From Bacteriovoracia bacterium (GTDB lineage Bacteria > Bdellovibrionota > Bacteriovoracia > Bacteriovoracales > Bacteriovoracaceae), in NCBI GenBank assembly GCA_046570105.1, contig JBKHVI010000048.1, positions 1-19,554 on the forward strand: DNA of 19,554 nucleotides. The letters run 5' to 3'. The notes under the pieces were generated by a model that saw nothing but the letters and a program-made list of their open reading frames with translations, ran no database searches and had not been told where the DNA came from. The position numbers were made by a program, and so were the translations under genes. This document shows positions 2,794 to 15,743 of this stretch, in pieces (position 1 is the first letter of the stretch; every line of letters begins with the position of its first letter).

Positions 2794-3585
2794 ATGACAC
2801 TTCCTACTGCTTCAAAGCTTTTTTTGCACTTCGGCCCAGGCGGTAACTGCCTGGTGGAAAAATCTATCTTTGGTTCAGAGCTCGCCATTGAATGGTGGGA
2901 TCAACCCAGCTTCGCGATAGATGATAAAGAGGCTTTATCGAAGCTTCGCCAGGCCGCTGTTGATAAAATCCGCACGATGCACGGATCAGCACATAAGAAA
3001 ATTACCGTGTTCGCCAATAGTTATGGGGCCCATCTCGCAGTGGCCGCCATTCAAGAAGTTCAAGATCTAATTGAGCATGTGGTGATTCTTGGATCACAGC
3101 CCAAGATTTCATCGTCCTATGAAAACCTCGCTCAGTTTCTCCTCATACAAAATCCCAAAAACCTTGAGTTAAAAGAAGCGAGCCTCGCTTTTGGAAAAAG
3201 CAAGACGTGGGAAAGTTTTCAGACTCTCTTAGGGGCCATTAGTAGTGTCGAAGGATTTATGCTGAACTACTGGCACAAAAAAGATTCCAAGGCCTTCAAA
3301 CTTTGGCTCGAGATTGCGTCCCAAGACAAACTTATGAACTTCGATAGTTTCCTCGCGATCATCCAGGGCCACTTTGCGGAAGGCACTTTTGATCAGCTGG
3401 CCTCAGCAGAAGCTATTCCCATTCCAGCTAGTTATATTTACGGAGCTTTCGATCCACTGGCCTGCGAAGAAGAAGATGTGCCTCAATGGAAGCACATCTT
3501 TCCTCAATTGCAAGTAAGGCAACTCGATTGCGGTCACTTCGTTCATTTAGAGGTCGCGACTTCAGATTGGCTCAGTCCTACTTAA
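2794..3585 (+). CDS. Alpha/beta-fold hydrolase
   Basis: Oxyanion loop LHFGPGG, nucleophile elbow ANSYG, acid in YGAFDPL, and His in CGHFVHLE. Confidence 0.85.
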   Translation: MTLPTASKLFLHFGPGGNCLVEKSIFGSELAIEWWDQPSFAIDDKEALSKLRQAAVDKIRTMHGSAHKKITVFANSYGAHLAVAAIQEVQDLIEHVVILGSQPKISSSYENLAQFLLIQNPKNLELKEASLAFGKSKTWESFQTLLGAISSVEGFMLNYWHKKDSKAFKLWLEIASQDKLMNFDSFLAIIQGHFAEGTFDQLASAEAIPIPASYIYGAFDPLACEEEDVPQWKHIFPQLQVRQLDCGHFVHLEVATSDWLSPT

Positions 3586-4465
3586 CTTTCTTTCCCTTTT
3601 TAACAGTGAGATCGGCCAGATCTATCGCCAAATATTCCGGTAATACCGGTGTGGGCTCGATTTGAGTCAAAAGACCAAGTTTCTCTGGCGACTTAGTCAG
3701 CAACACATCAAGCAGCAATCGTATGCAGACTGTCGCATGGCCCACAAGCGCGGCCGGCCCAAAGATGGGAACTCTTTTGCAATCAATCTCGTCTTGAAAG
3801 CCACTTAAGAATGTTTGATCCATATAACTCGAGTGAGGTGTAGAGAAGATTTCAACCACTTCTTTGCCCGGAGGATTGGTCATGCGATCTTTGGGAATCG
3901 ATTGAATAAGATCTTCAAAAGTAAAATCGTTCCCCACAAACTTATAGAATCGAATCCCCATTCCTAAAATATAAGCACTATAAACAGGTATGTTTCTTTT
4001 TCTGGCAGCTTTATGAAGCATGATATGGGCATTGAGTGGATACACATCAATCTCATCGACAATGATATCGCAACCTTCGACAAACTCTTCAACCGTCTCT
4101 TCTGTAATACCTGTGAGATATGTGACTAACTCAAAGTCGTCAGCTATTTTAAGTAGTTCATTTCGTAAAACTTCGGCTTTTGATTGTCCGACTGATTCGC
4201 GATTAGCAATCACTTGCCGCTGAATATTGCTTACATCTACGGTGTCTGGGTCGGTAATTCTTAAATGCCCAACTCCCATCCGCACCAACGTTTCAGCGAT
4301 GTTGGAACCCATCCCTCCAAGACCAGCAACTCCAATTTTAAGTTTTCTAATTTCATCTTGACCGGCTGAGCCCCCAATAAAAAAATGATTTCGTTTAGTC
4401 CTCTCGTGATAAATCTCTTGAGACAATTTTCCTTTATCGAAATACTTGGCATTTTTGTATGACAT
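3578..4465 (-). CDS. ThiF/MoeB/E1-family adenylyltransferase without CxxC zinc motifs
   Basis: RN...IG...Q..I...KIGVAGLGGMGS, DPDTVDVSNIQRQ, VGQSKA and DIIVDEID. SD AGGAG lies upstream on the minus strand. Confidence 0.92.
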   Translation of the reverse strand: MSYKNAKYFDKGKLSQEIYHERTKRNHFFIGGSAGQDEIRKLKIGVAGLGGMGSNIAETLVRMGVGHLRITDPDTVDVSNIQRQVIANRESVGQSKAEVLRNELLKIADDFELVTYLTGITEETVEEFVEGCDIIVDEIDVYPLNAHIMLHKAARKRNIPVYSAYILGMGIRFYKFVGNDFTFEDLIQSIPKDRMTNPPGKEVVEIFSTPHSSYMDQTFLSGFQDEIDCKRVPIFGPAALVGHATVCIRLLLDVLLTKSPEKLGLLTQIEPTPVLPEYLAIDLADLTVKKGKKVK

Positions 4466-4471
4466 TACTTA

Positions 4472-4548
4472 CTCCTAATTTGCTCTAAGTTTTAAATTTC
4501 GTTATTCCGATCGGAATCGCATCAACAAAACTTAGACCTGATTTGGAG
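4472..4548. promoter_or_regulatory. Two-fold symmetric divergent promoter/operator; two overlapping sigma28-like promoters may share a palindromic -10
   Basis: Perfect palindrome ATTCCGATCGGAAT (4504-4517) flanked by TCTAAGTTTT (4484-4493) and AAAACTTAGA (4527-4536). It reads TAAG-N16-TCCGATCG on + and TAAG-N15-TCCGATCG on -. Confidence 0.65.
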
Positions 4549-4552
4549 AAAC

Positions 4553-5233
4553 ATGAAATTAGTTATTCTAAAGAAACCGATTGAGATGCTTACCAGCGAA
4601 GATTGCCGCAAAGTCTTTATGGATGTCATTGAACTAAGACAGCGTCTTTACAGAGAGCAATTCGATAAAGTCTTATGTTTAGATAAATATGATTTAATAT
4701 CAGATCACTTTATTATTTATGACTCAGAAACTCAGCAGCCTATCATCTATATGCGCTCAATCTCTAAACAAGTATGTGATGAATTTAGTGTCCCCGTCCC
4801 TCTTTATGAGTCGTTGAGAAATTCCACAACTCATCTCCAAGACCTCAATACTTTTTATCAACTCACTCCTGCTGCTCTCAACATGAGTTTTTTATGCAAA
4901 GACACAACCTTTAATGAAAAGATCAAGAGACTCAAAATCTGCAACTTGATGATTTGGCTGGCCTTTAAGGCCTCAAATCTTAGTATGCATGAACTTGGAT
5001 ACTGTGCGACCCCAAACGCAAAATATAATTTGAAGCGTAGCCTTAATGAGATCGGAAGTTTTTATGGTACCCTTCCTGAATTCATTCACCCAACAGTACC
5101 TGAGCCACATGAGCTCGTGATGATTCATCAAGTGAGTGCCACTTTTTGGTTTGAAATGGAATTACGCTTTGGAGAACTATTTAATAATCGAAGTGAAATT
5201 TCGCGAGAAGCTGAATTGAATGAAGCTGCCTAG
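4553..5233 (+). CDS. LuxI/FeeM-like (GNAT-fold) N-acyltransferase, putative signal or N-acyl amino acid synthase
   Basis: The N-terminal pattern LRxxxY...DKYD...HF...(YM)R matches the conserved R/aromatic/D-x-x-D/R block of AHL synthases and N-acyl amino acid synthases. SD GGAG at 4545-4548. Confidence 0.6.
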   Translation: MKLVILKKPIEMLTSEDCRKVFMDVIELRQRLYREQFDKVLCLDKYDLISDHFIIYDSETQQPIIYMRSISKQVCDEFSVPVPLYESLRNSTTHLQDLNTFYQLTPAALNMSFLCKDTTFNEKIKRLKICNLMIWLAFKASNLSMHELGYCATPNAKYNLKRSLNEIGSFYGTLPEFIHPTVPEPHELVMIHQVSATFWFEMELRFGELFNNRSEISREAELNEAA

Positions 5234-6081
5234 TTGGCAAATTTAATCTCGAAGCGATCGGTGGAGTCACCTTGATGGACACTTGAGAGTGTACGGGCCC
5301 TCGTAAAGCCGGCACAGAACTCTTGAATAAACCCAACACAACCCCCTTGGCGGTAGGCATTCACAAATGGGGTATCAATGATGTGTGTCTTAAGCTCTTC
5401 CTGACGAATCTCTTTCGCGGTGACTTCTACATTGATGGTTGAAGCAGTCAGGCTTTCAATTTTATAATTAAAATTCGTTTCAAATTTTTGCATGGTCTCT
5501 TCGAAAATCTTCTCCAAAACCTGACTTGGCGTCGCGAGTTCTTGGTAGCCCTCAACCAGAGATTTGTTCTCATTCAGCTTAATGATCTCATATCCCATCA
5601 TATAAAATGCTGAATCACTCATTCCTAAATCATGCGCCTCTGTCAGAATATCCACCAAAAGTGCAATACTCACTTCGGTGTCTGGAGTCTGCAAAATTTG
5701 GCGAGGGAACTTCAATTTATTAAGGATATGATTAAAACTTTTTTCGCCAATCACATTTCGAATGTAGTTTAGCGGCGGCAAACTTGTGCGAACGCGTGAC
5801 CCCCGAGATAAAGTGTACTTTTCCTGTAAGGCAGGCGTTTTCAACCAGTCATAATCGATACGATCGTTAATAAAATCTGAAGCAGTAATATTGAAGTACT
5901 TACTCAGCTTCATAATCGTTAACGGCTGAACCGAGTTTGTCTTTAAATCATCAAGTTCGGAATCTGAGAAGGAAGCCTCTTTATTAATCTCTAGCACGTC
6001 TCTATCGAGAAGCTGACAGAGCTTCTCGTAGCGCGAATAAAGATTATTAGTCGAAGGCAAGCGCCCTTCATGCAAACTCAT
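5230..6081 (-). CDS. Putative regulator: degenerate XRE-like HTH plus H-NOX/V4R/AraC-N-like ligand-binding domain
   Basis: KLSKYFNITASDF resembles the end of an XRE domain. The central region is paralogous to the 6068-6916 protein. The C-terminal SSVHQGDSTDRFEI resembles the V4R C-x3-GD-x2-C-x-F end without the cysteines. Confidence 0.6.
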   Translation of the reverse strand: MSLHEGRLPSTNNLYSRYEKLCQLLDRDVLEINKEASFSDSELDDLKTNSVQPLTIMKLSKYFNITASDFINDRIDYDWLKTPALQEKYTLSRGSRVRTSLPPLNYIRNVIGEKSFNHILNKLKFPRQILQTPDTEVSIALLVDILTEAHDLGMSDSAFYMMGYEIIKLNENKSLVEGYQELATPSQVLEKIFEETMQKFETNFNYKIESLTASTINVEVTAKEIRQEELKTHIIDTPFVNAYRQGGCVGFIQEFCAGFTRARTLSSVHQGDSTDRFEIKFAN

Positions 6082-6916
6082 ATTCCAATATCTCTTTGAA
6101 GAAGACCTGATGTTTGACTTCTACATTCTTGTTCAGATTTGAATAAAGCTTCGCCAAATAGGAAGCAAACGGCGTGGTGTAATCCACAGGCGCTGAACGA
6201 GTATTCTTCATTTTCGGTAAACGAATTCTAGCCAAACGTGACTTAGGATTACACTCAACCGCTTCGTCCACTCCAGCTTGCATATAAACCACTTTGAGGA
6301 ATTCCAAGAAATCGGCCGAGACTTCCTTCTTTGGAATCGCTACGTTCTTAAGAGAATCGCCAAAAACTCGCTGATCTAGTGCGTGAGAGACCATACGATC
6401 AAGGACATTCGATTTTTCAGTAATAACTTTCTCTCTGACTGCCAGCTCAAAAAGATCCCAAAGTAAATTTGCATTGACCAACAATGTGGGCTCTACAAAG
6501 TGGTATTCCTTTAAGTTGAGCGACTTAAGAACTTTAATTGTTTTCTCTTCACCTAGTTGATCTACAAAACTCATCAAAATCGGATAAGCCACACGAATCG
6601 GAGCATTCGCGTTATTCGAGTAACGAGCAGGCAAGAAGTTGGTGTTCTGAAAACTCTTCAACAGCTTCTTGAATGGAATTTGCCCACAGACAAAATTATC
6701 AATTGAAATATCCAGTCCCTCTTTCAAGGTTTGAAGTTGATCTAAATTAAATTTAACCTCACCTACACCTTGCTCCATCTTTGAGAGCCAGCCCTGTGTG
6801 CTGGTTAAAAGAGTGGCCATCTCTTTTTGATTGAGGCCGCAGAACTCACGTGTATAGTGCAGGATTTTATTTGGAGCGTAAGGAGGGAAAAACCAGTATT
6901 TTGTGTTTGATGCCAT
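6068..6916 (-). CDS. XRE (HTH_3) family transcriptional regulator with C-terminal ligand-binding-like domain
   Basis: LHYTREFCGLNQKEMATLLTSTQGWLSKMEQG is a canonical XRE HTH. It overlaps the downstream paralog by 14 bp. Confidence 0.8.
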   Translation of the reverse strand: MASNTKYWFFPPYAPNKILHYTREFCGLNQKEMATLLTSTQGWLSKMEQGVGEVKFNLDQLQTLKEGLDISIDNFVCGQIPFKKLLKSFQNTNFLPARYSNNANAPIRVAYPILMSFVDQLGEEKTIKVLKSLNLKEYHFVEPTLLVNANLLWDLFELAVREKVITEKSNVLDRMVSHALDQRVFGDSLKNVAIPKKEVSADFLEFLKVVYMQAGVDEAVECNPKSRLARIRLPKMKNTRSAPVDYTTPFASYLAKLYSNLNKNVEVKHQVFFKEILEYEFA

Positions 6917-7094
6917 AAAACCTTCTTCGTTTTATAAATTCTAGTGACTTAGAACAGACTGCAGCTAGCTTATTCCCAAAGCCACAAGAGGGGAAGAGAT
7001 ACTCCAATACTAATTATTTTCAGTTCTGACTAAGTCGATCGGCATAATTTTTCGCTTGCGACGAGCTTATTCTCGATGGAATAATATCTCCGCC

Positions 7095-7493
7095 ATGAGC
7101 GAACCATACAAAATTCTGGTAGTAGATGACGAGAAAGAAATCCTCGAAATCATTGGATATGTCCTAAACTCACCTCAAATTCAAATTTTTAGTGCTCCTG
7201 ATCCATTTGCTGCAGATCTTGTTCTGCAACAACATGAAATCAATTTAATTGTTTCTGATGAAATATTTCCTGAAACTCGCGGACAACCTTGGATTTCGAA
7301 GTTAAAGAAAAAATACGACCACATGCAATATATCATATTCTCGGGCCAACTTGATTTAGCCGATATCTGCTCCGGTGCAAATTGCCGTTTTATTTATAAG
7401 CCCGATTTTCAATTGCTTCAAAAAGCCATTAAAGAAATTCATCAAAAATGGCTTGAGAATCAAATGGCTCTTTATTCGAAAGAAGCGAAATAA
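7095..7493 (+). CDS. Single-domain response regulator (receiver)
   Basis: KILVVDDE, phospho-acceptor Asp in IVSDEIFP, IIFSG and YKP. ATG 7095 is preferred over TTG 7056 because the REC domain starts right after it. Confidence 0.88.
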   Translation: MSEPYKILVVDDEKEILEIIGYVLNSPQIQIFSAPDPFAADLVLQQHEINLIVSDEIFPETRGQPWISKLKKKYDHMQYIIFSGQLDLADICSGANCRFIYKPDFQLLQKAIKEIHQKWLENQMALYSKEAK

Positions 7494-8758
7494 AGCCCCT
7501 TTCGCTTTTTCTCATGATCAGTAAACTTCCCCACTCTCCATTTAAAATTCGCCGGAACTCCTTCCGCTACTTTTTCATCTACTCTCTTCTTCAACTCTTT
7601 AATTGAGTAATAGGTGGTGGGGATTTTAGTGGGATCGACTTCAGTACCATCTGACAGTGGCGGATTGGGAATTTTTCGATTGTTACGAAATGGAATGACT
7701 TGAATTTGTTTTAAGCGCATGGATTCAAAATCATAAACTGCGCGAGCCACATAGTTTTGGGCGACTGAAGCTAGCCCTTCATGCAAAAAGTTTCCAGTTG
7801 AAGTAAAGATCACTCCTTGAGTCTTATCCTTTTTCTCAAGATACTTCACTCCTCCCCAAGCATGAGGACCATGACCAAAAACCAGATCACCATCATGTTC
7901 TTGAATAAATTTATCTGCAATTTTCTTTAATAATAAAAATGCTTTCGCCTCAGGTTTCTTATCTCCTGAAGCGTCTTGGGTATGAATCGATAAAATTTTT
8001 AGATCCGCTTGAGAATCACTGAATTCTTTTAAGTACCACTCAATTTGTTCTTCAACGTCGACTTGGGTGTAATCAAAAACTTTGGCATTCGGGATATCCC
8101 AATTGAGAAGTGAGATTGCACCAAGTGCAATCGTAACGTCCTTCCCTTTGATATTCAGCTGTTTAACACTCACGTTCTTGCCACTATCACCCACTCCATT
8201 CCACATAAAATCTTTATTGGGTGTTATGGTGAGTGCAGACTCCTCGGTCATCAGTGGCCCATGCTTCTTTGGAGATTTCATGAAGGCTCGACCAAGATCA
8301 CAGTCTTGCGCATGATTGTTAGAAAAACTAATCAGATTAAAACCGTGATCTATCGCCTGAGTGATGGCTTCTGGATCGGTCAGAAAATAGAATGAGACTG
8401 CGCGACGAATTTTATCACAATGTTTGCCAACGACAGTCTCGAAATTGATAAACGATAAGTCTGCGACGAAAATACTAGCGTAAGGATCGTATTGTTTCAT
8501 AGCGAGATCAAATTCAGCTTTGCGTGCTTTCTTCTCACCATAAATTGGTTTACGACTTAAAGTCCAAGCGGCATCACCTGTTGCACGAACATCTAAAAGA
8601 TTTGCGTAAGATTTCAAGTCAAGCTTGTACTGTTTGTCTTCGGTGGTTTCGACGTCTTTTCCGTACCAAGCTCGATCTTCTAAAATGCCCACAGTAATTT
8701 TGGGTTTGGGAGTGGCGCAACCAACAAGGGCGAATGCCAATAGCAAAATGAACTTCAT
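7472..8758 (-). CDS. CapA (PGA_cap) family metallophosphatase-fold lipoprotein
   Basis: Lipobox LVG-C. Motifs ATGD, FINFET, SNNHAQD, SIH, FGHGPH and STGNF. Confidence 0.85.
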   Translation of the reverse strand: MKFILLLAFALVGCATPKPKITVGILEDRAWYGKDVETTEDKQYKLDLKSYANLLDVRATGDAAWTLSRKPIYGEKKARKAEFDLAMKQYDPYASIFVADLSFINFETVVGKHCDKIRRAVSFYFLTDPEAITQAIDHGFNLISFSNNHAQDCDLGRAFMKSPKKHGPLMTEESALTITPNKDFMWNGVGDSGKNVSVKQLNIKGKDVTIALGAISLLNWDIPNAKVFDYTQVDVEEQIEWYLKEFSDSQADLKILSIHTQDASGDKKPEAKAFLLLKKIADKFIQEHDGDLVFGHGPHAWGGVKYLEKKDKTQGVIFTSTGNFLHEGLASVAQNYVARAVYDFESMRLKQIQVIPFRNNRKIPNPPLSDGTEVDPTKIPTTYYSIKELKKRVDEKVAEGVPANFKWRVGKFTDHEKKRKGLYFASFE

Positions 8759-13039: not shown

Positions 13040-13092
13040 TCTTGGATGGCACCGTTCTTGATGGTAAGTCCCCTATAATCAAGGGATTTACT

Positions 13093-14793
13093 ATGAAAAC
13101 GGCTTCGTTTTTCGCCTCTATTTTAATGTTTATGAGTAGTTACTCCGCCCTGGGGTCAACGCTCCTCATGAACACCACGCCAACAGATGTGCAAAACTTG
13201 GTCACTGACCAGTCCTTGATAAATGTTTCTGAGGCCCGCGAAGTGTGCCGCCAACTCACCGACGATGATTTTATCTCTCACAAAGGCTTTCCAGTCCCTA
13301 AGCGATCTAAGGGTGTTAAGCGCCACGTGAAGCATCTCTGTGAGCGCGTTGACATGCTCATATGGCAAGAGTCGACCGTATTAACAGAAGACATGAGTGC
13401 GCTCTATGAGTTGCGCCTTTTGCAGACTTCACTGCTACAGAAAGGTAAAGCGGACGCAATCGGAATGACTTTAAGAGGTAAACTCTCGATGGGTCTCTAT
13501 TCTGTCCTCACGCCCTTTACACTCAAATTTAAAAATCGCATCGGGAAAAACGAAGCTGGTAACTTAGAACTTACTAAACCAGTGAGCGAATACACGGTTG
13601 ATGAACTCGCTCTTTTGAATCCAAAAAATTCACCCTTCTTTGAACTCAATACCAACAAAGAAATGCACAAGCGTTTTGGTGATCTCGCTAAGAAGAAAAA
13701 AATTGATGAACGTGAAAAGATGGTCATCGTTTTTGATTCTGTGAGTGACAATGGCAGTGCTCCTAAAATTAAAGCGATTGATTCTCTCAATGATGAAGAC
13801 GAATGGTCTCTCAAGTGGGGCGACGAAATTCACACTGACGTTGTCGGATCGCGCCTCTTTGCTGCGCTAGGCTTTGATGTTGATCACCCTTACTATCGCA
13901 CTCGCGATGACCTCTATGTGGTTTTCCCCCAGGAGAACCTCGATAAGAATGCCGACGATATGCTTAATCGCATTCGCCAAAATTTTAGTATCGATATTAG
14001 TAATTTCGTTTCTAAAACCGGCATCGTGAGTGATGAGGATATCGCTAATAATCCGGAGCTTAAAAACTACAAAGGTCTTCCCTATGTCACCTTCATTGAA
14101 TGTGCCATTGAAGGTCGCCCAGATCGCGTCAAGCGCATGGGCTCAATCGTTCCAGATCATATCGGAAATGCTGATCGTCGTGAATTACGTGGCGCTCTCC
14201 TCGCCCACATGTGGATTGATAACTGGGACGTGCGCGAAGAGAATACTCTTATTTCAGTTAATCATTTAGGTAAGTATAAATACGAAACCCGTGGGGCCTT
14301 CAGTGACCTCGGTACTTCTCTTGGCGTTAAGCTCACTCTTCATAAAGGTGATTTTCGCGTTGGACTACCCAATCAATTCGGTTGGAATCTCGTAAAGCGT
14401 GACTCTGATAAGGCGATCTCATTTCATGGAGTCATGAATTCCAGAATGGCACCTTACAAGAATGCCACTTATGCCGATCTCAAATGGATGGCCCATCAGA
14501 TTGCTCGTATTGATAAAACGGCTCTAGAGAAGATTCTTGAGAAGTCGGGCTGGCCAAAAGATATTCAAAAAATTTATTTCCATAAGTTGGCCTCGCGTCG
14601 TGAGCAAATCCTTACTGGCTTTGATATCACAGATCCTAACCCCATTAAATTTGAAACCACTTTAAATTTTGAACACAACGGTGAAGTGGTGGTTAAAGAT
14701 GGTCGATTAATTAAAGACATCGATGCTGACAAACACCCTATCGGATTCCGTAATACCCGTGGCCGAGTTCGTAATTACGGGAGGTCTTTATGA
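13093..14793 (+). CDS. Secreted protein with atypical kinase-like (HipA/PI3K/CotH-type) motifs
   Basis: ATG 13093 follows an SD-like AAGGGA and TATAAT, and opens a signal peptide. Motifs occur in kinase order: GSAPK, WSLKW, DEIHTDVVGSRLFAALGF, NWDVREEN (D-x-R-x-x-N) and SDLG. Confidence 0.55.
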   Translation: MKTASFFASILMFMSSYSALGSTLLMNTTPTDVQNLVTDQSLINVSEAREVCRQLTDDDFISHKGFPVPKRSKGVKRHVKHLCERVDMLIWQESTVLTEDMSALYELRLLQTSLLQKGKADAIGMTLRGKLSMGLYSVLTPFTLKFKNRIGKNEAGNLELTKPVSEYTVDELALLNPKNSPFFELNTNKEMHKRFGDLAKKKKIDEREKMVIVFDSVSDNGSAPKIKAIDSLNDEDEWSLKWGDEIHTDVVGSRLFAALGFDVDHPYYRTRDDLYVVFPQENLDKNADDMLNRIRQNFSIDISNFVSKTGIVSDEDIANNPELKNYKGLPYVTFIECAIEGRPDRVKRMGSIVPDHIGNADRRELRGALLAHMWIDNWDVREENTLISVNHLGKYKYETRGAFSDLGTSLGVKLTLHKGDFRVGLPNQFGWNLVKRDSDKAISFHGVMNSRMAPYKNATYADLKWMAHQIARIDKTALEKILEKSGWPKDIQKIYFHKLASRREQILTGFDITDPNPIKFETTLNFEHNGEVVVKDGRLIKDIDADKHPIGFRNTRGRVRNYGRSL

Positions 14794-15743
14794 AAAACTT
14801 AATAGCTTCTGCAGTTCTTCTTCTCTCTATCGCTGTGGCCCGCGCCCAGACTGAAGAGCAACGCAAATATGTCTTCTCGGCACTTAATGAGAGAACTCTG
14901 CAAACAGTTGATGGTGGAGCCGTCTTGAATGGACTGACCATCAAAAAACACTCGGTCTATGAATACTATGATCTTTATCTCGATACCGAGGAACTCGATC
15001 TTCTTAAAATGAATTTAAGTCTGCGTATCCGAAAACGTGATTACGGCAATGGCACCATTGAATACGGCATGCAACTTAAGAGCGAGATGCTTAAGGCCGG
15101 TGATATCCGCATGGAGATCGATGAAACAGAGCTTGATTACATGCAAGTTTACTATCGCGGTCATGTGATTAAACTACAAAACGTCCTCGCATCCATCTAT
15201 GAAAGCTTTCAAGCGAAACTTGCTTCAGGTGAAGTAGTCGATCTCTCCAATGATGCCGACATGCAAGAGAACCTCAATATCCTTAAGACATGGTTAGCCT
15301 TCAAGGCCAATAGCGCTGTTGCGCCACTACAGAAATTGCGTCAGCTCAAGCTGCCTCTTGAGAAACGCCAAACGTTGCGTCCTGTGATTATCGGACGCTC
15401 TGTTCGTACGCGCTCACACGTCTATATTGATCGCCAGAACACCACGGAAGATTTAGTGAACTTTGCTGCATCAACCCGCTCGATACTTGAAACTCCAGAA
15501 GGAGTTAAAGGTGAAGACAAAGTTTGGACGATGGAAGCCTCATTTGATCGCGCCCAGTTTTATCGTGTCGATGCGCCAGGTAAGCATTTAATTAATGAAT
15601 TTGAGGTAGAAAACAAATACTTACCTCACGAAAACAGCCGTGAACTTCTCACGCGCTTTGAAGATGGTCTGATATCAGAACTAGCTGCCGAGGTTAATCT
15701 CGAGTCAAAGTATCTGCAGACTATGAAAGCTTTAGGTCTGTAA
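14790..15743 (+). CDS. Secreted CYTH / triphosphate tunnel metalloenzyme-domain protein
   Basis: Signal peptide ending ARA, then EEQRKY (variant ExExK), DLYLDT..L.L....SLRIRKR, QLK, R.EID, ASFD and EFEVE. ATGA overlap with the upstream gene and SD GGAGG. Confidence 0.75.
   Translation: MKNLIASAVLLLSIAVARAQTEEQRKYVFSALNERTLQTVDGGAVLNGLTIKKHSVYEYYDLYLDTEELDLLKMNLSLRIRKRDYGNGTIEYGMQLKSEMLKAGDIRMEIDETELDYMQVYYRGHVIKLQNVLASIYESFQAKLASGEVVDLSNDADMQENLNILKTWLAFKANSAVAPLQKLRQLKLPLEKRQTLRPVIIGRSVRTRSHVYIDRQNTTEDLVNFAASTRSILETPEGVKGEDKVWTMEASFDRAQFYRVDAPGKHLINEFEVENKYLPHENSRELLTRFEDGLISELAAEVNLESKYLQTMKALGL

Follow-up and report, generated by a model that had tools for sequence, protein, structure and literature searches.

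The window analyzed here, a 19,554-nucleotide stretch from a member of the Bacteriovoracia, carries six tightly packed genes between positions 2794 and 7493, and all six open reading frames, with junction overlaps of 8, 4 and 14 bp, lie where an earlier note on this DNA had placed them. An alpha/beta hydrolase of 263 aa (2794..3585, + strand; Pfam Abhydrolase_1, E 1.2e-8) is followed by a stand-alone ThiF/E1-like adenylyltransferase of 295 aa (3578..4465, - strand; Pfam ThiF, E 1.1e-37). A gap of 87 bp separates the ThiF gene from a divergently transcribed 226-aa GNAT acyltransferase with a LuxI/FeeM fold (4553..5233, + strand), the candidate signal synthase, and within this divergent promoter region sits a perfect 14-bp palindrome, ATTC-N6-GAAT (4504..4517), a candidate operator. 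Convergent with the acyltransferase gene and overlapping it by 4 bp is regulator R1 (283 aa; 5230..6081, - strand), a candidate ligand sensor comprised of a divergent XRE-like HTH and a heme-less H-NOX/V4R domain. Next to it lies regulator R2 (282 aa; 6068..6916, - strand), which joins an XRE HTH to an H-NOX/V4R-like domain and is the candidate DNA-binding partner of R1. A second ATTC-N6-GAAT box (7069..7082) falls between R2 and the gene for a single-domain receiver of 131 aa, a possible output gene (7098..7493, + strand; Pfam Response_reg, E 9.7e-11), for which we take the ATG at 7098 as the start, the longest open reading frame beginning at 7056. The GC content of the cassette is below that of the genome (0.38-0.42 vs 0.446), and an integrase is present at the contig end.

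A widespread and variable cassette

This cassette is widespread, conserved and unnamed in the Bdellovibrionota. The acyltransferase family is present in 102 of 401 sampled genomes, about a quarter, and at least 90 of the 102 matches have a regulator within 5 kb, as do at least 60 of the 68 matches outside the profile's training set. In at least 44 of those 68, the regulator is convergent and no more than 200 bp away. These counts are lower bounds, because eight weak or split acyltransferase rows were left out and 45 further regulator matches were not included. The synthase-regulator arrangement is far beyond chance. Of the 150 regulator matches listed, 34 have no synthase within 6 kb, resembling LuxR solos in this respect. 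Within the genus the cassette is patchy, occurring in one of ten other genomes. Among cultured strains, Bdellovibrio sp. HCB337 has both ThiF and the synthase (L224), and Bdellovibrio sp. qaytius has the synthase (L216).

Per-locus presence was scored over 101 loci, after the removal of ten (L062, L064, L066-L068 and L070-L074), nine of which are OlsB-like without a cassette and one a split weak match; at L092 and L115, no synthase was called by the ORF script. R1 is found in 85 loci, R2 in 61, a methyltransferase family in 44, ThiF in 37 and the hydrolase family in 31, the last counted within 4 kb of the acyltransferase. The receiver, which the earlier note had included, is not a core cassette member: its synteny is weak, and apart from the window and L004, 8 of the 101 loci hold a gene of a single-domain receiver cluster. 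The two points on which that note let its proposal stand or fall in genomic terms, a GNAT/LuxI-type fold and co-occurrence of the genes across the phylum, both hold as examined here.

The candidate synthase and its putative tailoring partners

Fold assignments were based on Foldseek, Atlas and hhalign. The AlphaFold model of the acyltransferase (pLDDT 94) finds RpaI, BjaI and EsaI as its top Foldseek matches (TMq 0.53-0.57; RpaI at E 4.9e-6 and TMq 0.57), and the seven best chains are all AHL synthases. In the Atlas, the protein reaches a TM of 0.70 to FeeM (PF21926) clusters and likewise 0.70 to a ThiF-GNAT fusion cluster. The synthase profile, run by sequence against solved structures, returned nothing meaningful. 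Sequence profiles point elsewhere: the profile probability is 93.8% for an OlsB-like set, 31% for a FeeM-like set and 2.4% for LuxI. None of 34 family members exceeds the cut-off of PF00765. In this genome PF00765 has no match, and its positive control gave none either; across the phylum there are weak partial matches in 20 of 301, the best at 32 bits, and of those listed none coincides with a cassette position. A single family member of 34 matches PF21926 (E 0.0085), which falls short of placing the family with FeeM, and the acyltransferase itself lies below the Pfam cut-offs of both PF21926 and PF13444.

The residues give a similar picture. The LuxI test set comprised R25, F29, W35, E44, D46, D49, R70, E101 and R104 (TraI numbering). 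The acyltransferase's N-terminal R/K29, Y33, D44 and D47 align to TraI R25, F29, D46 and D49, while W35, E44, E101 and R104, invariant in nine LuxI proteins, are absent; the alignment to LuxI is of low probability, and the missing residues are also absent from the family's own list of conserved positions. The D-x-x-D-x-x-x-x-H motif is shared with FeeM-type synthases (PF21926) and OlsB-like GNATs (PF13444). The beta-strand Glu of the LuxI/FeeM motif (E79 in the FeeM-like set), which is catalytic in FeeM, is replaced by N110 here and by Tyr in 68% of the family, and the chemistry of the synthase may therefore differ. Unlike the FeeM/OlsB-like enzymes, the cassette synthase is also consistently tied to a regulator. 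The earlier designation as LuxI/FeeM-like thus holds for the GNAT fold but not for the residues diagnostic of either family, and the nearest profile is OlsB-like. Without the Trp, Glu and Arg found in LuxI, the acyltransferase is by its sequence neither LuxI nor FeeM and is assigned to a new clade.

The neighboring ThiF (3578-4465) is a candidate carboxylate-activating cyclase. It scores below every named NCBIfam cut-off shown, and its family ranges from 267 to 390 aa. As the earlier note had it, the enzyme stands alone, with no CxxC motif (0 of 38 family members) and no nearby nitroreductase (none among 96 of 100 listed neighbors scanned at E 1e-12). PDB entries 9EGB-9EGD are the only ThiF structures that match most of the profile length, and we found no paper naming them. 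A CBASS Cap2 or E1-E2 defense role for ThiF is not supported, as neither an E2 domain nor a cyclase or ubiquitin-like partner was found in ThiF or among the neighbors scanned. An N-acyltransferase of AHL-synthase-like scaffold adjoining a ThiF enzyme is also the arrangement of the OxzAB, TyzACB and TrzAS systems, and the pairing of an N-acyltransferase with a stand-alone ThiF is already known from TyzA/TyzB, where TyzB likewise stands alone and is encoded on the opposite strand (PMC10404671). The tyz and stieleriacine papers do not mention a regulator, and the cassette differs from these systems in having dedicated regulators, a box and a hydrolase, in the missing nitroreductase, and in a ThiF that is optional. 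For NAS-ThiF clusters in other organisms, one study reports no detectable oxazolone (PMC12479983).

ThiF, then, is not a core component, as the earlier note had supposed, but one of two interchangeable partners. ThiF and the methyltransferase family never occur together in the 101 loci, with 20 loci having neither, and the two have exchanged places 11 times on a quick acyltransferase tree. Directly upstream of the synthase, ThiF is found in 15 loci and the methyltransferase in 25; L049 and L053 are examples of the methyltransferase type, and one ThiF locus (L112) also has an unrelated methyltransferase nearby. In phylogenetically independent pairs, the exclusion is not significant (eight pairs, about four informative, none against, median p 0.125), and we do not rely on Fisher values that ignore kinship (p 2e-13 for the exclusion and 1e-9 for the box discussed below). 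That the two never co-occur suggests that they are alternative caps for one carboxylate. The methyltransferase's best solved-structure matches are unassigned or N-methyltransferases, which does not pin down a carboxyl chemistry. The hydrolase has an intact Ser76-Asp220-His248 triad, invariant in 27 family members, and is a candidate signal-removing or uncapping enzyme.

Paired regulators and a palindromic promoter box

R1 and R2 are paralogs by profile comparison (probability 99.6%, E 3.6e-24), as the earlier note had proposed; BLASTP between them does not detect this. Its description of an XRE-type HTH with a V4R-like ligand domain is likewise supported. The R1 model (pLDDT 87) matches H-NOX best in Foldseek, followed by the phenol sensor MopR and palmitate-bound Bet3, and hhalign gives R1 against H-NOX at 95%; the V4R Pfam family itself is matched by only 1 of 26 regulators. 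Conserved receptor residues are Y89, S95, D144, N203 and Y206. The regulators differ from H-NOX proteins in their fused N-terminal XRE HTH and in the lack of heme ligation features, with M197 at the proximal His position of R1 and no YxSxR. Heme sensing by R1 or R2 was rejected because the heme ligands are missing. MmyB gave no match in profile and structure searches of the regulators, and PF03472 (LuxR) has none in this genome (88% complete), where a positive control was detected.

Q30, Q41, S45 and E48 of the R2 HTH are conserved at 93-98% in 61 members, and the two proteins look non-equivalent, with the conserved HTH apparently kept only in the distal R2. A small gene of XRE type takes the place of R2 in 13 of the 28 loci that have R1 alone. 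R1 and R2 are predicted to form a heterodimer, with a complex score of 0.81 (best control 0.00), runs agreeing in at least 88% of contacts and partner pLDDT of at least 82; of 157 solved complexes, 116 attain the mark used for this score, as do 2 of 215 mismatched pairs. Because the partners are paralogs, the score may instead reflect a common XRE dimer surface.

The earlier note had called the 87-bp gap a symmetric divergent region. Its length is as described; its symmetry is modest (46 of 85 positions, reached by 6 of 500 shuffles) and its longest palindrome arm is ordinary (reached by 137 of 200 shuffles). We reject the whole-gap symmetry as an operator and favor the central 14-bp box, whose conservation in other genomes is what gives the symmetry meaning. 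The exact box lies upstream of 20 of 98 acyltransferases, the same set on which it was discovered, vs 27 of 905 other genes, and it is also upstream of 14 of 66 R2 genes. The box occurs 76 times in the 644 kb near cassettes and 27 times in 760 kb of more distant sequence, whereas the same half-sites with other spacers give 13-23 and 17-23, respectively. Of the 61 loci with R2, 29 have a promoter-placed box, vs 2 of the 28 R1-only loci, an association confounded by clade. This contig has only two boxes, and the 3.0-Mb genome has 52. The second box lies 16 bp upstream of the receiver gene here, as one also does in L004. Conservation thus points to a candidate operator that marks cassette promoters and tracks with R2.

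A proposed signaling circuit and its alternatives

We favor, at a probability of roughly 0.6, an autoinducer-like circuit in which the chemistry of the signal and the type of receptor would both be new, and in which the cassette would produce, cap and detect a small molecule of its own. The acyltransferase would carry out acyl transfer to give an N-acylated amino-acid-type molecule, whose carboxylate ThiF would adenylate to form a saturated oxazolone (azlactone), while in other genomes the methyltransferase would produce a methyl ester. Both would be neutral, membrane-permeable forms. The pocket of R1 would bind the capped form, the R2 HTH would read ATTC-N6-GAAT, and ligand might alter the R1-R2 interaction so as to switch the genes for the synthase, the tailoring enzymes and the regulators, along with two-component genes close by, through autoinduction or derepression. 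The hydrolase would reverse the cap or product, and the molecule would act between cells. Against this reading, neither a transporter nor a conserved output regulon was seen.

Such a circuit has much in common with LuxI/LuxR systems of the esaI/esaR type, where EsaR acts at esa boxes by autoinduction or derepression. As in quorum sensing, the genes for the synthase and a ligand-domain regulator are linked, and a candidate operator accompanies them. Shared features are the AHL-synthase fold, the convergent overlapping synthase and regulator genes (overlapping by 4 bp here and by 29 bp for esaI/esaR in L209), the palindromic promoter box and the regulator solos. The differences are a synthase without the four invariant LuxI residues, regulators of XRE plus H-NOX/V4R type in two unequal copies, and added tailoring enzymes.

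It is unlikely, though worth weighing, that the cassette is instead a self-regulated biosynthetic cluster for a functional lipid or an anti-competitor or anti-prey compound, with R1 and R2 providing intracellular product feedback and no cell-to-cell signaling. The closest relative by profile is a GNAT with a housekeeping role whose gene adjoins that of another acyltransferase, a pair that we label OlsB/OlsA-like, and most boxes precede genes of the cassette itself. The ligand domain of MmyB is PAS-like, whereas that of the cassette regulators is of H-NOX/V4R type. Regulators with an XRE HTH and a lipid-binding domain do sit beside biosynthetic genes and control them, as described for the fatty-acid-binding MmyB/MltR (PMC3406030), and neither oxazolones nor NAMEs have a proven signaling role (10.1101/2020.06.11.147165; PMC11580390). 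However, the constant partner of the synthase is a regulator (85/101) and not a tailoring enzyme (at most 44/101), boxes are also placed ahead of genes for histidine kinases (5 sites), receivers (4) and HATPases (3), the regulators without a synthase resemble LuxR solos, and there is no conserved exporter.

Less probable still is a LuxI-like synthase whose direct product is a lactone-type signal or another one derived from SAM; ThiF would then activate an acid at an earlier step, and the hydrolase would be a lactonase. The AHL-synthase structure matches and the four corresponding N-terminal residues fit this idea, but the lost invariant residues, the low LuxI profile probability, the unmatched PF00765 (as was its control) and the lack, among the PDB matches, of OlsB-like structures that could compete weigh against it, and it leaves the ThiF/methyltransferase exclusion unexplained. 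Most improbable is a protein- or RNA-modifying module (a GNAT toxin paired with XRE antitoxins, or phage defense through an E1-like enzyme). The patchiness, low GC, integrase at the contig end and generic E1-E2 matches of ThiF would agree with it, but those matches span only the common nucleotide-binding part, neither the synthase nor the hydrolase nor the receiver has a PADLOC match, the cassette neighbors show no recurrent ubiquitin-like, E2 or JAB family, the partners are small-molecule enzymes, and the fold is that of the LuxI/FeeM branch of GNATs.

The signaling reading gains from the ThiF/methyltransferase exclusion and the palindromic box at cassette promoters, both new beyond the earlier note. 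We found no published description of a self-made autoinducer circuit in the Bdellovibrionota, and the main text of a comparative-genomics paper on the phylum (PMC11656739) contains none of the terms ‘quorum’, ‘ThiF’, ‘acyltransferase’, ‘XRE’ or ‘GNAT’. More tentatively, and with the odds somewhat against so specific a picture, azlactone and methyl-ester N-acyl amino acids, a heterodimeric XRE/heme-less H-NOX receptor divided between a sensor and a DNA reader, and the 14-bp box might together allow predators to count kin or mark occupied prey. If true, this would be a cell-to-cell signaling class native to the Bdellovibrio phylum, with lineage-specific dialects arising from azlactone vs methyl-ester caps.

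Organisation and distribution of the locus

The earlier note described six open reading frames, and these were recovered on the claimed strands, with their overlaps of 8, 4 and 14 bp and the 87-bp divergent gap: a hydrolase (2794-3585, +), a ThiF enzyme (3578-4465, -), a GNAT acyltransferase, here the synthase (4553-5233, +), regulators R1 (5230-6081, -) and R2 (6068-6916, -), and a receiver (7056/7098-7493, +). The expectation that this gene set co-occurs across Bdellovibrionota is borne out by synthase-regulator linkage. Synthase profile matches occur in 102 of 401 phylum genomes and R1 matches in 116, and a regulator lies within 5 kb of 90 of 102 synthase matches, including 60 of 68 outside the training genomes, where 44 of the 68 have it convergent and within 200 bp. 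With the single synthase protein as query, one of ten other genomes of the genus matched. Within 4 kb of the synthase in 101 annotated loci, we find R1 in 85, R2 in 61, one methyltransferase family in 44, ThiF in 37, the window's hydrolase family in 31, a second hydrolase family in 18 and histidine kinases in 18. For 34 of the 150 regulator matches listed, R1-R2 pairs included (L148-L150), no synthase match lies within 6 kb; these regulators (L145-L154 and others) are possibly 'solo' receptors, and some may reflect missed or split synthases.

The window is one entire contig of a 3.0 Mb, 88% complete genome, in which a genome-wide check found no close paralogues of the synthase, regulators or hydrolase. 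Bdellovibrionota is the commonest taxon of the Atlas clusters nearest the synthase and R1, and named relatives also give this phylum; phylum membership alone suggests a predatory source organism. An ORF at the contig end (1-1035, +), integrase-like of the tyrosine type by its motifs, lies 1.8 kb from the cassette, across which GC falls to 0.38-0.42, and an island context is possible. Immediately 5' of the hydrolase is a DNA-alkylation-repair-like gene (1603-2724, +), found in one other genome (G007) and not kept in the remaining cassette loci. A PGA_cap/CapA-family gene (7472-8758, -) overlaps the receiver by 22 bp and weakly matches the MslH epimerase; such genes also adjoin the synthase at L082, L113 and L143 and could encode an accessory enzyme. 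Further off, an ORF of 566-583 aa without Pfam match (13042-14793, +) overlaps a CYTH-domain gene (14790-15743, +).

Regulators and a candidate operator

R1 and R2 are paralogues, each with an XRE-type HTH domain. In R2 this domain is conserved (Q30 98%, Q41 93%, S45 95%, E48 95%), whereas in R1 it is not; R1 keeps Y89, S95, D144, N203 and Y206 instead. H-NOX domains fill the top structural ranks for the R1 model (pLDDT 87), followed by Bet3 and the phenol sensor MopR; its profile aligns to that of 13 H-NOX proteins at 95% probability, but R1 lacks the heme His and YxSxR. The predicted R1-R2 complex scores 0.81 (best control 0.00; 116 of 157 solved complexes reach the mark, as do 2 of 215 mismatched pairs), though this score may echo a homodimer surface because the two are paralogues. 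At least 88% of contacts agree between runs, with partner pLDDT of at least 82. R1 would be the sensor and R2 the DNA reader. At 13 of the 28 loci that have R1 but lack R2, the position immediately 5' of R1 is taken by a small XRE-type gene.

A dyad search 5' of the synthases recovered the palindromic box ATTC-N6-GAAT in 19 of 101; across ten shuffles, the leading dyad occurred 6-8 times. With refined starts, the box lies upstream of 20/98 synthases, 14/66 R2 genes and 0/99 R1 genes, compared with 27/905 other genes. There are 76 sites in 644 kb near cassettes versus 27 in 760 kb further out, while control spacers of 4, 5, 7 and 8 give 13-23 and 17-23. Counting boxes placed at promoters, 29 of 61 loci that include R2 have one, as do 2 of 28 that have R1 alone and 1 of 12 that lack both regulators. 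Kinship inflates these contrasts, and the synthases were themselves the set from which the motif was discovered. The window's contig carries two, at 4504 and 7069, one in each of the cassette's divergent gaps.

Synthase fold and proposed chemistry

The synthase most likely N-acylates an amino acid. ThiF would then adenylate and cyclise the carboxylate, as OxzB and TyzB do (PMC12596934; 10.1101/2020.06.11.147165; PMC10404671; PMC12856293) but without oxidation, or a methyltransferase would convert this carboxylate to an ester. R1-R2 would recognise the resulting neutral compound and control promoters bearing the box, and the hydrolase, whose triad is invariant in 27 family members, would reverse this cap. 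ThiF and the methyltransferase family occur together at 0 of 101 loci (neither at 20), and their states swap 11 times along the synthase tree; phylogenetically independent pairs give a median p of 0.125, none against, which falls short of significance because such pairs are too few. At one locus an unrelated methyltransferase lies close to ThiF. A scan of 96 of the 100 neighbours listed for ThiF loci turned up no nitroreductase. Against the scheme count the strand Glu missing from the synthase, the methyltransferase's best solved matches, which do not pin its chemistry to carboxyl groups, and some NAS-ThiF clusters for which oxazolones are reported as not detected (PMC12479983). A metabolite cluster under feedback regulation is an unlikely alternative to signalling.

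The unnamed ThiF-fold entries PDB 9EGB, 9EGC and 9EGD cover positions 8-252 of the cassette-ThiF profile, longer than any named enzyme; a literature search found no paper on them. Accessory sets adjoining the synthase (L038, L041, L043, L114, L137, L047, L051, L131, L099, L100, L105, L108) comprise a fatty-acid desaturase, a heme-oxygenase-like diiron enzyme with an unnamed family of 230-290 aa, an argininosuccinate-synthase-like ligase, and a PLP enzyme co-oriented with ThiF, which suggests further signal chemistries.

A Pfam scan of the 226-aa synthase gave only a GNAT match, below threshold. The predicted LasI/EsaI/FeeM-type fold is recovered in its AlphaFold model (34 sequences, pLDDT 94): the best Foldseek matches are the AHL synthases RpaI, BjaI, EsaI, MesI, TofI and LasI (E 5e-6 to 2e-4, TMq 0.48-0.57), with FeeM at ranks 15 and 17. 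These matches would suit a LuxI-like lactone synthase, but that is improbable: against nine LuxI proteins from plasmid records, R25, F29, D46 and D49 have synthase counterparts, whereas W35, E44, E101 and R104 do not. The family profile matches FeeM-like proteins at 31% and LuxI at 2.4%, and the Atlas model has TM 0.70 to FeeM clusters and to a 644-aa ThiF-containing fusion cluster, versus 0.66 to an AHL-synthase cluster. Closest by profile to 98 family members are nine housekeeping GNATs adjoining a second acyltransferase (93.8%, E 1.8e-7), a pair we take to be OlsB/OlsA-like. The synthase may act like LuxI, FeeM or OlsB-like acyltransferases, yet belongs to none of these groups. FeeM-family matches occur in 118 of 201 phylum genomes (89 above cut-off), many in proteins of 400-500 aa, and separate putative N-acyl amino acid synthases are common across Bdellovibrionota. 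A toxin or defence module is very improbable; the matches from PADLOC were limited to generic E1 and HTH ones.

A new set of parts

No description of the cassette was found in searches of openly available articles, nor by term look-ups in the body text of PMC11656739, PMC10385382 and PMC8461301. Every named homologue is annotated 'hypothetical protein'. The cassette's logic is of a known kind, linking synthase, receptor and operator; its parts are new throughout.
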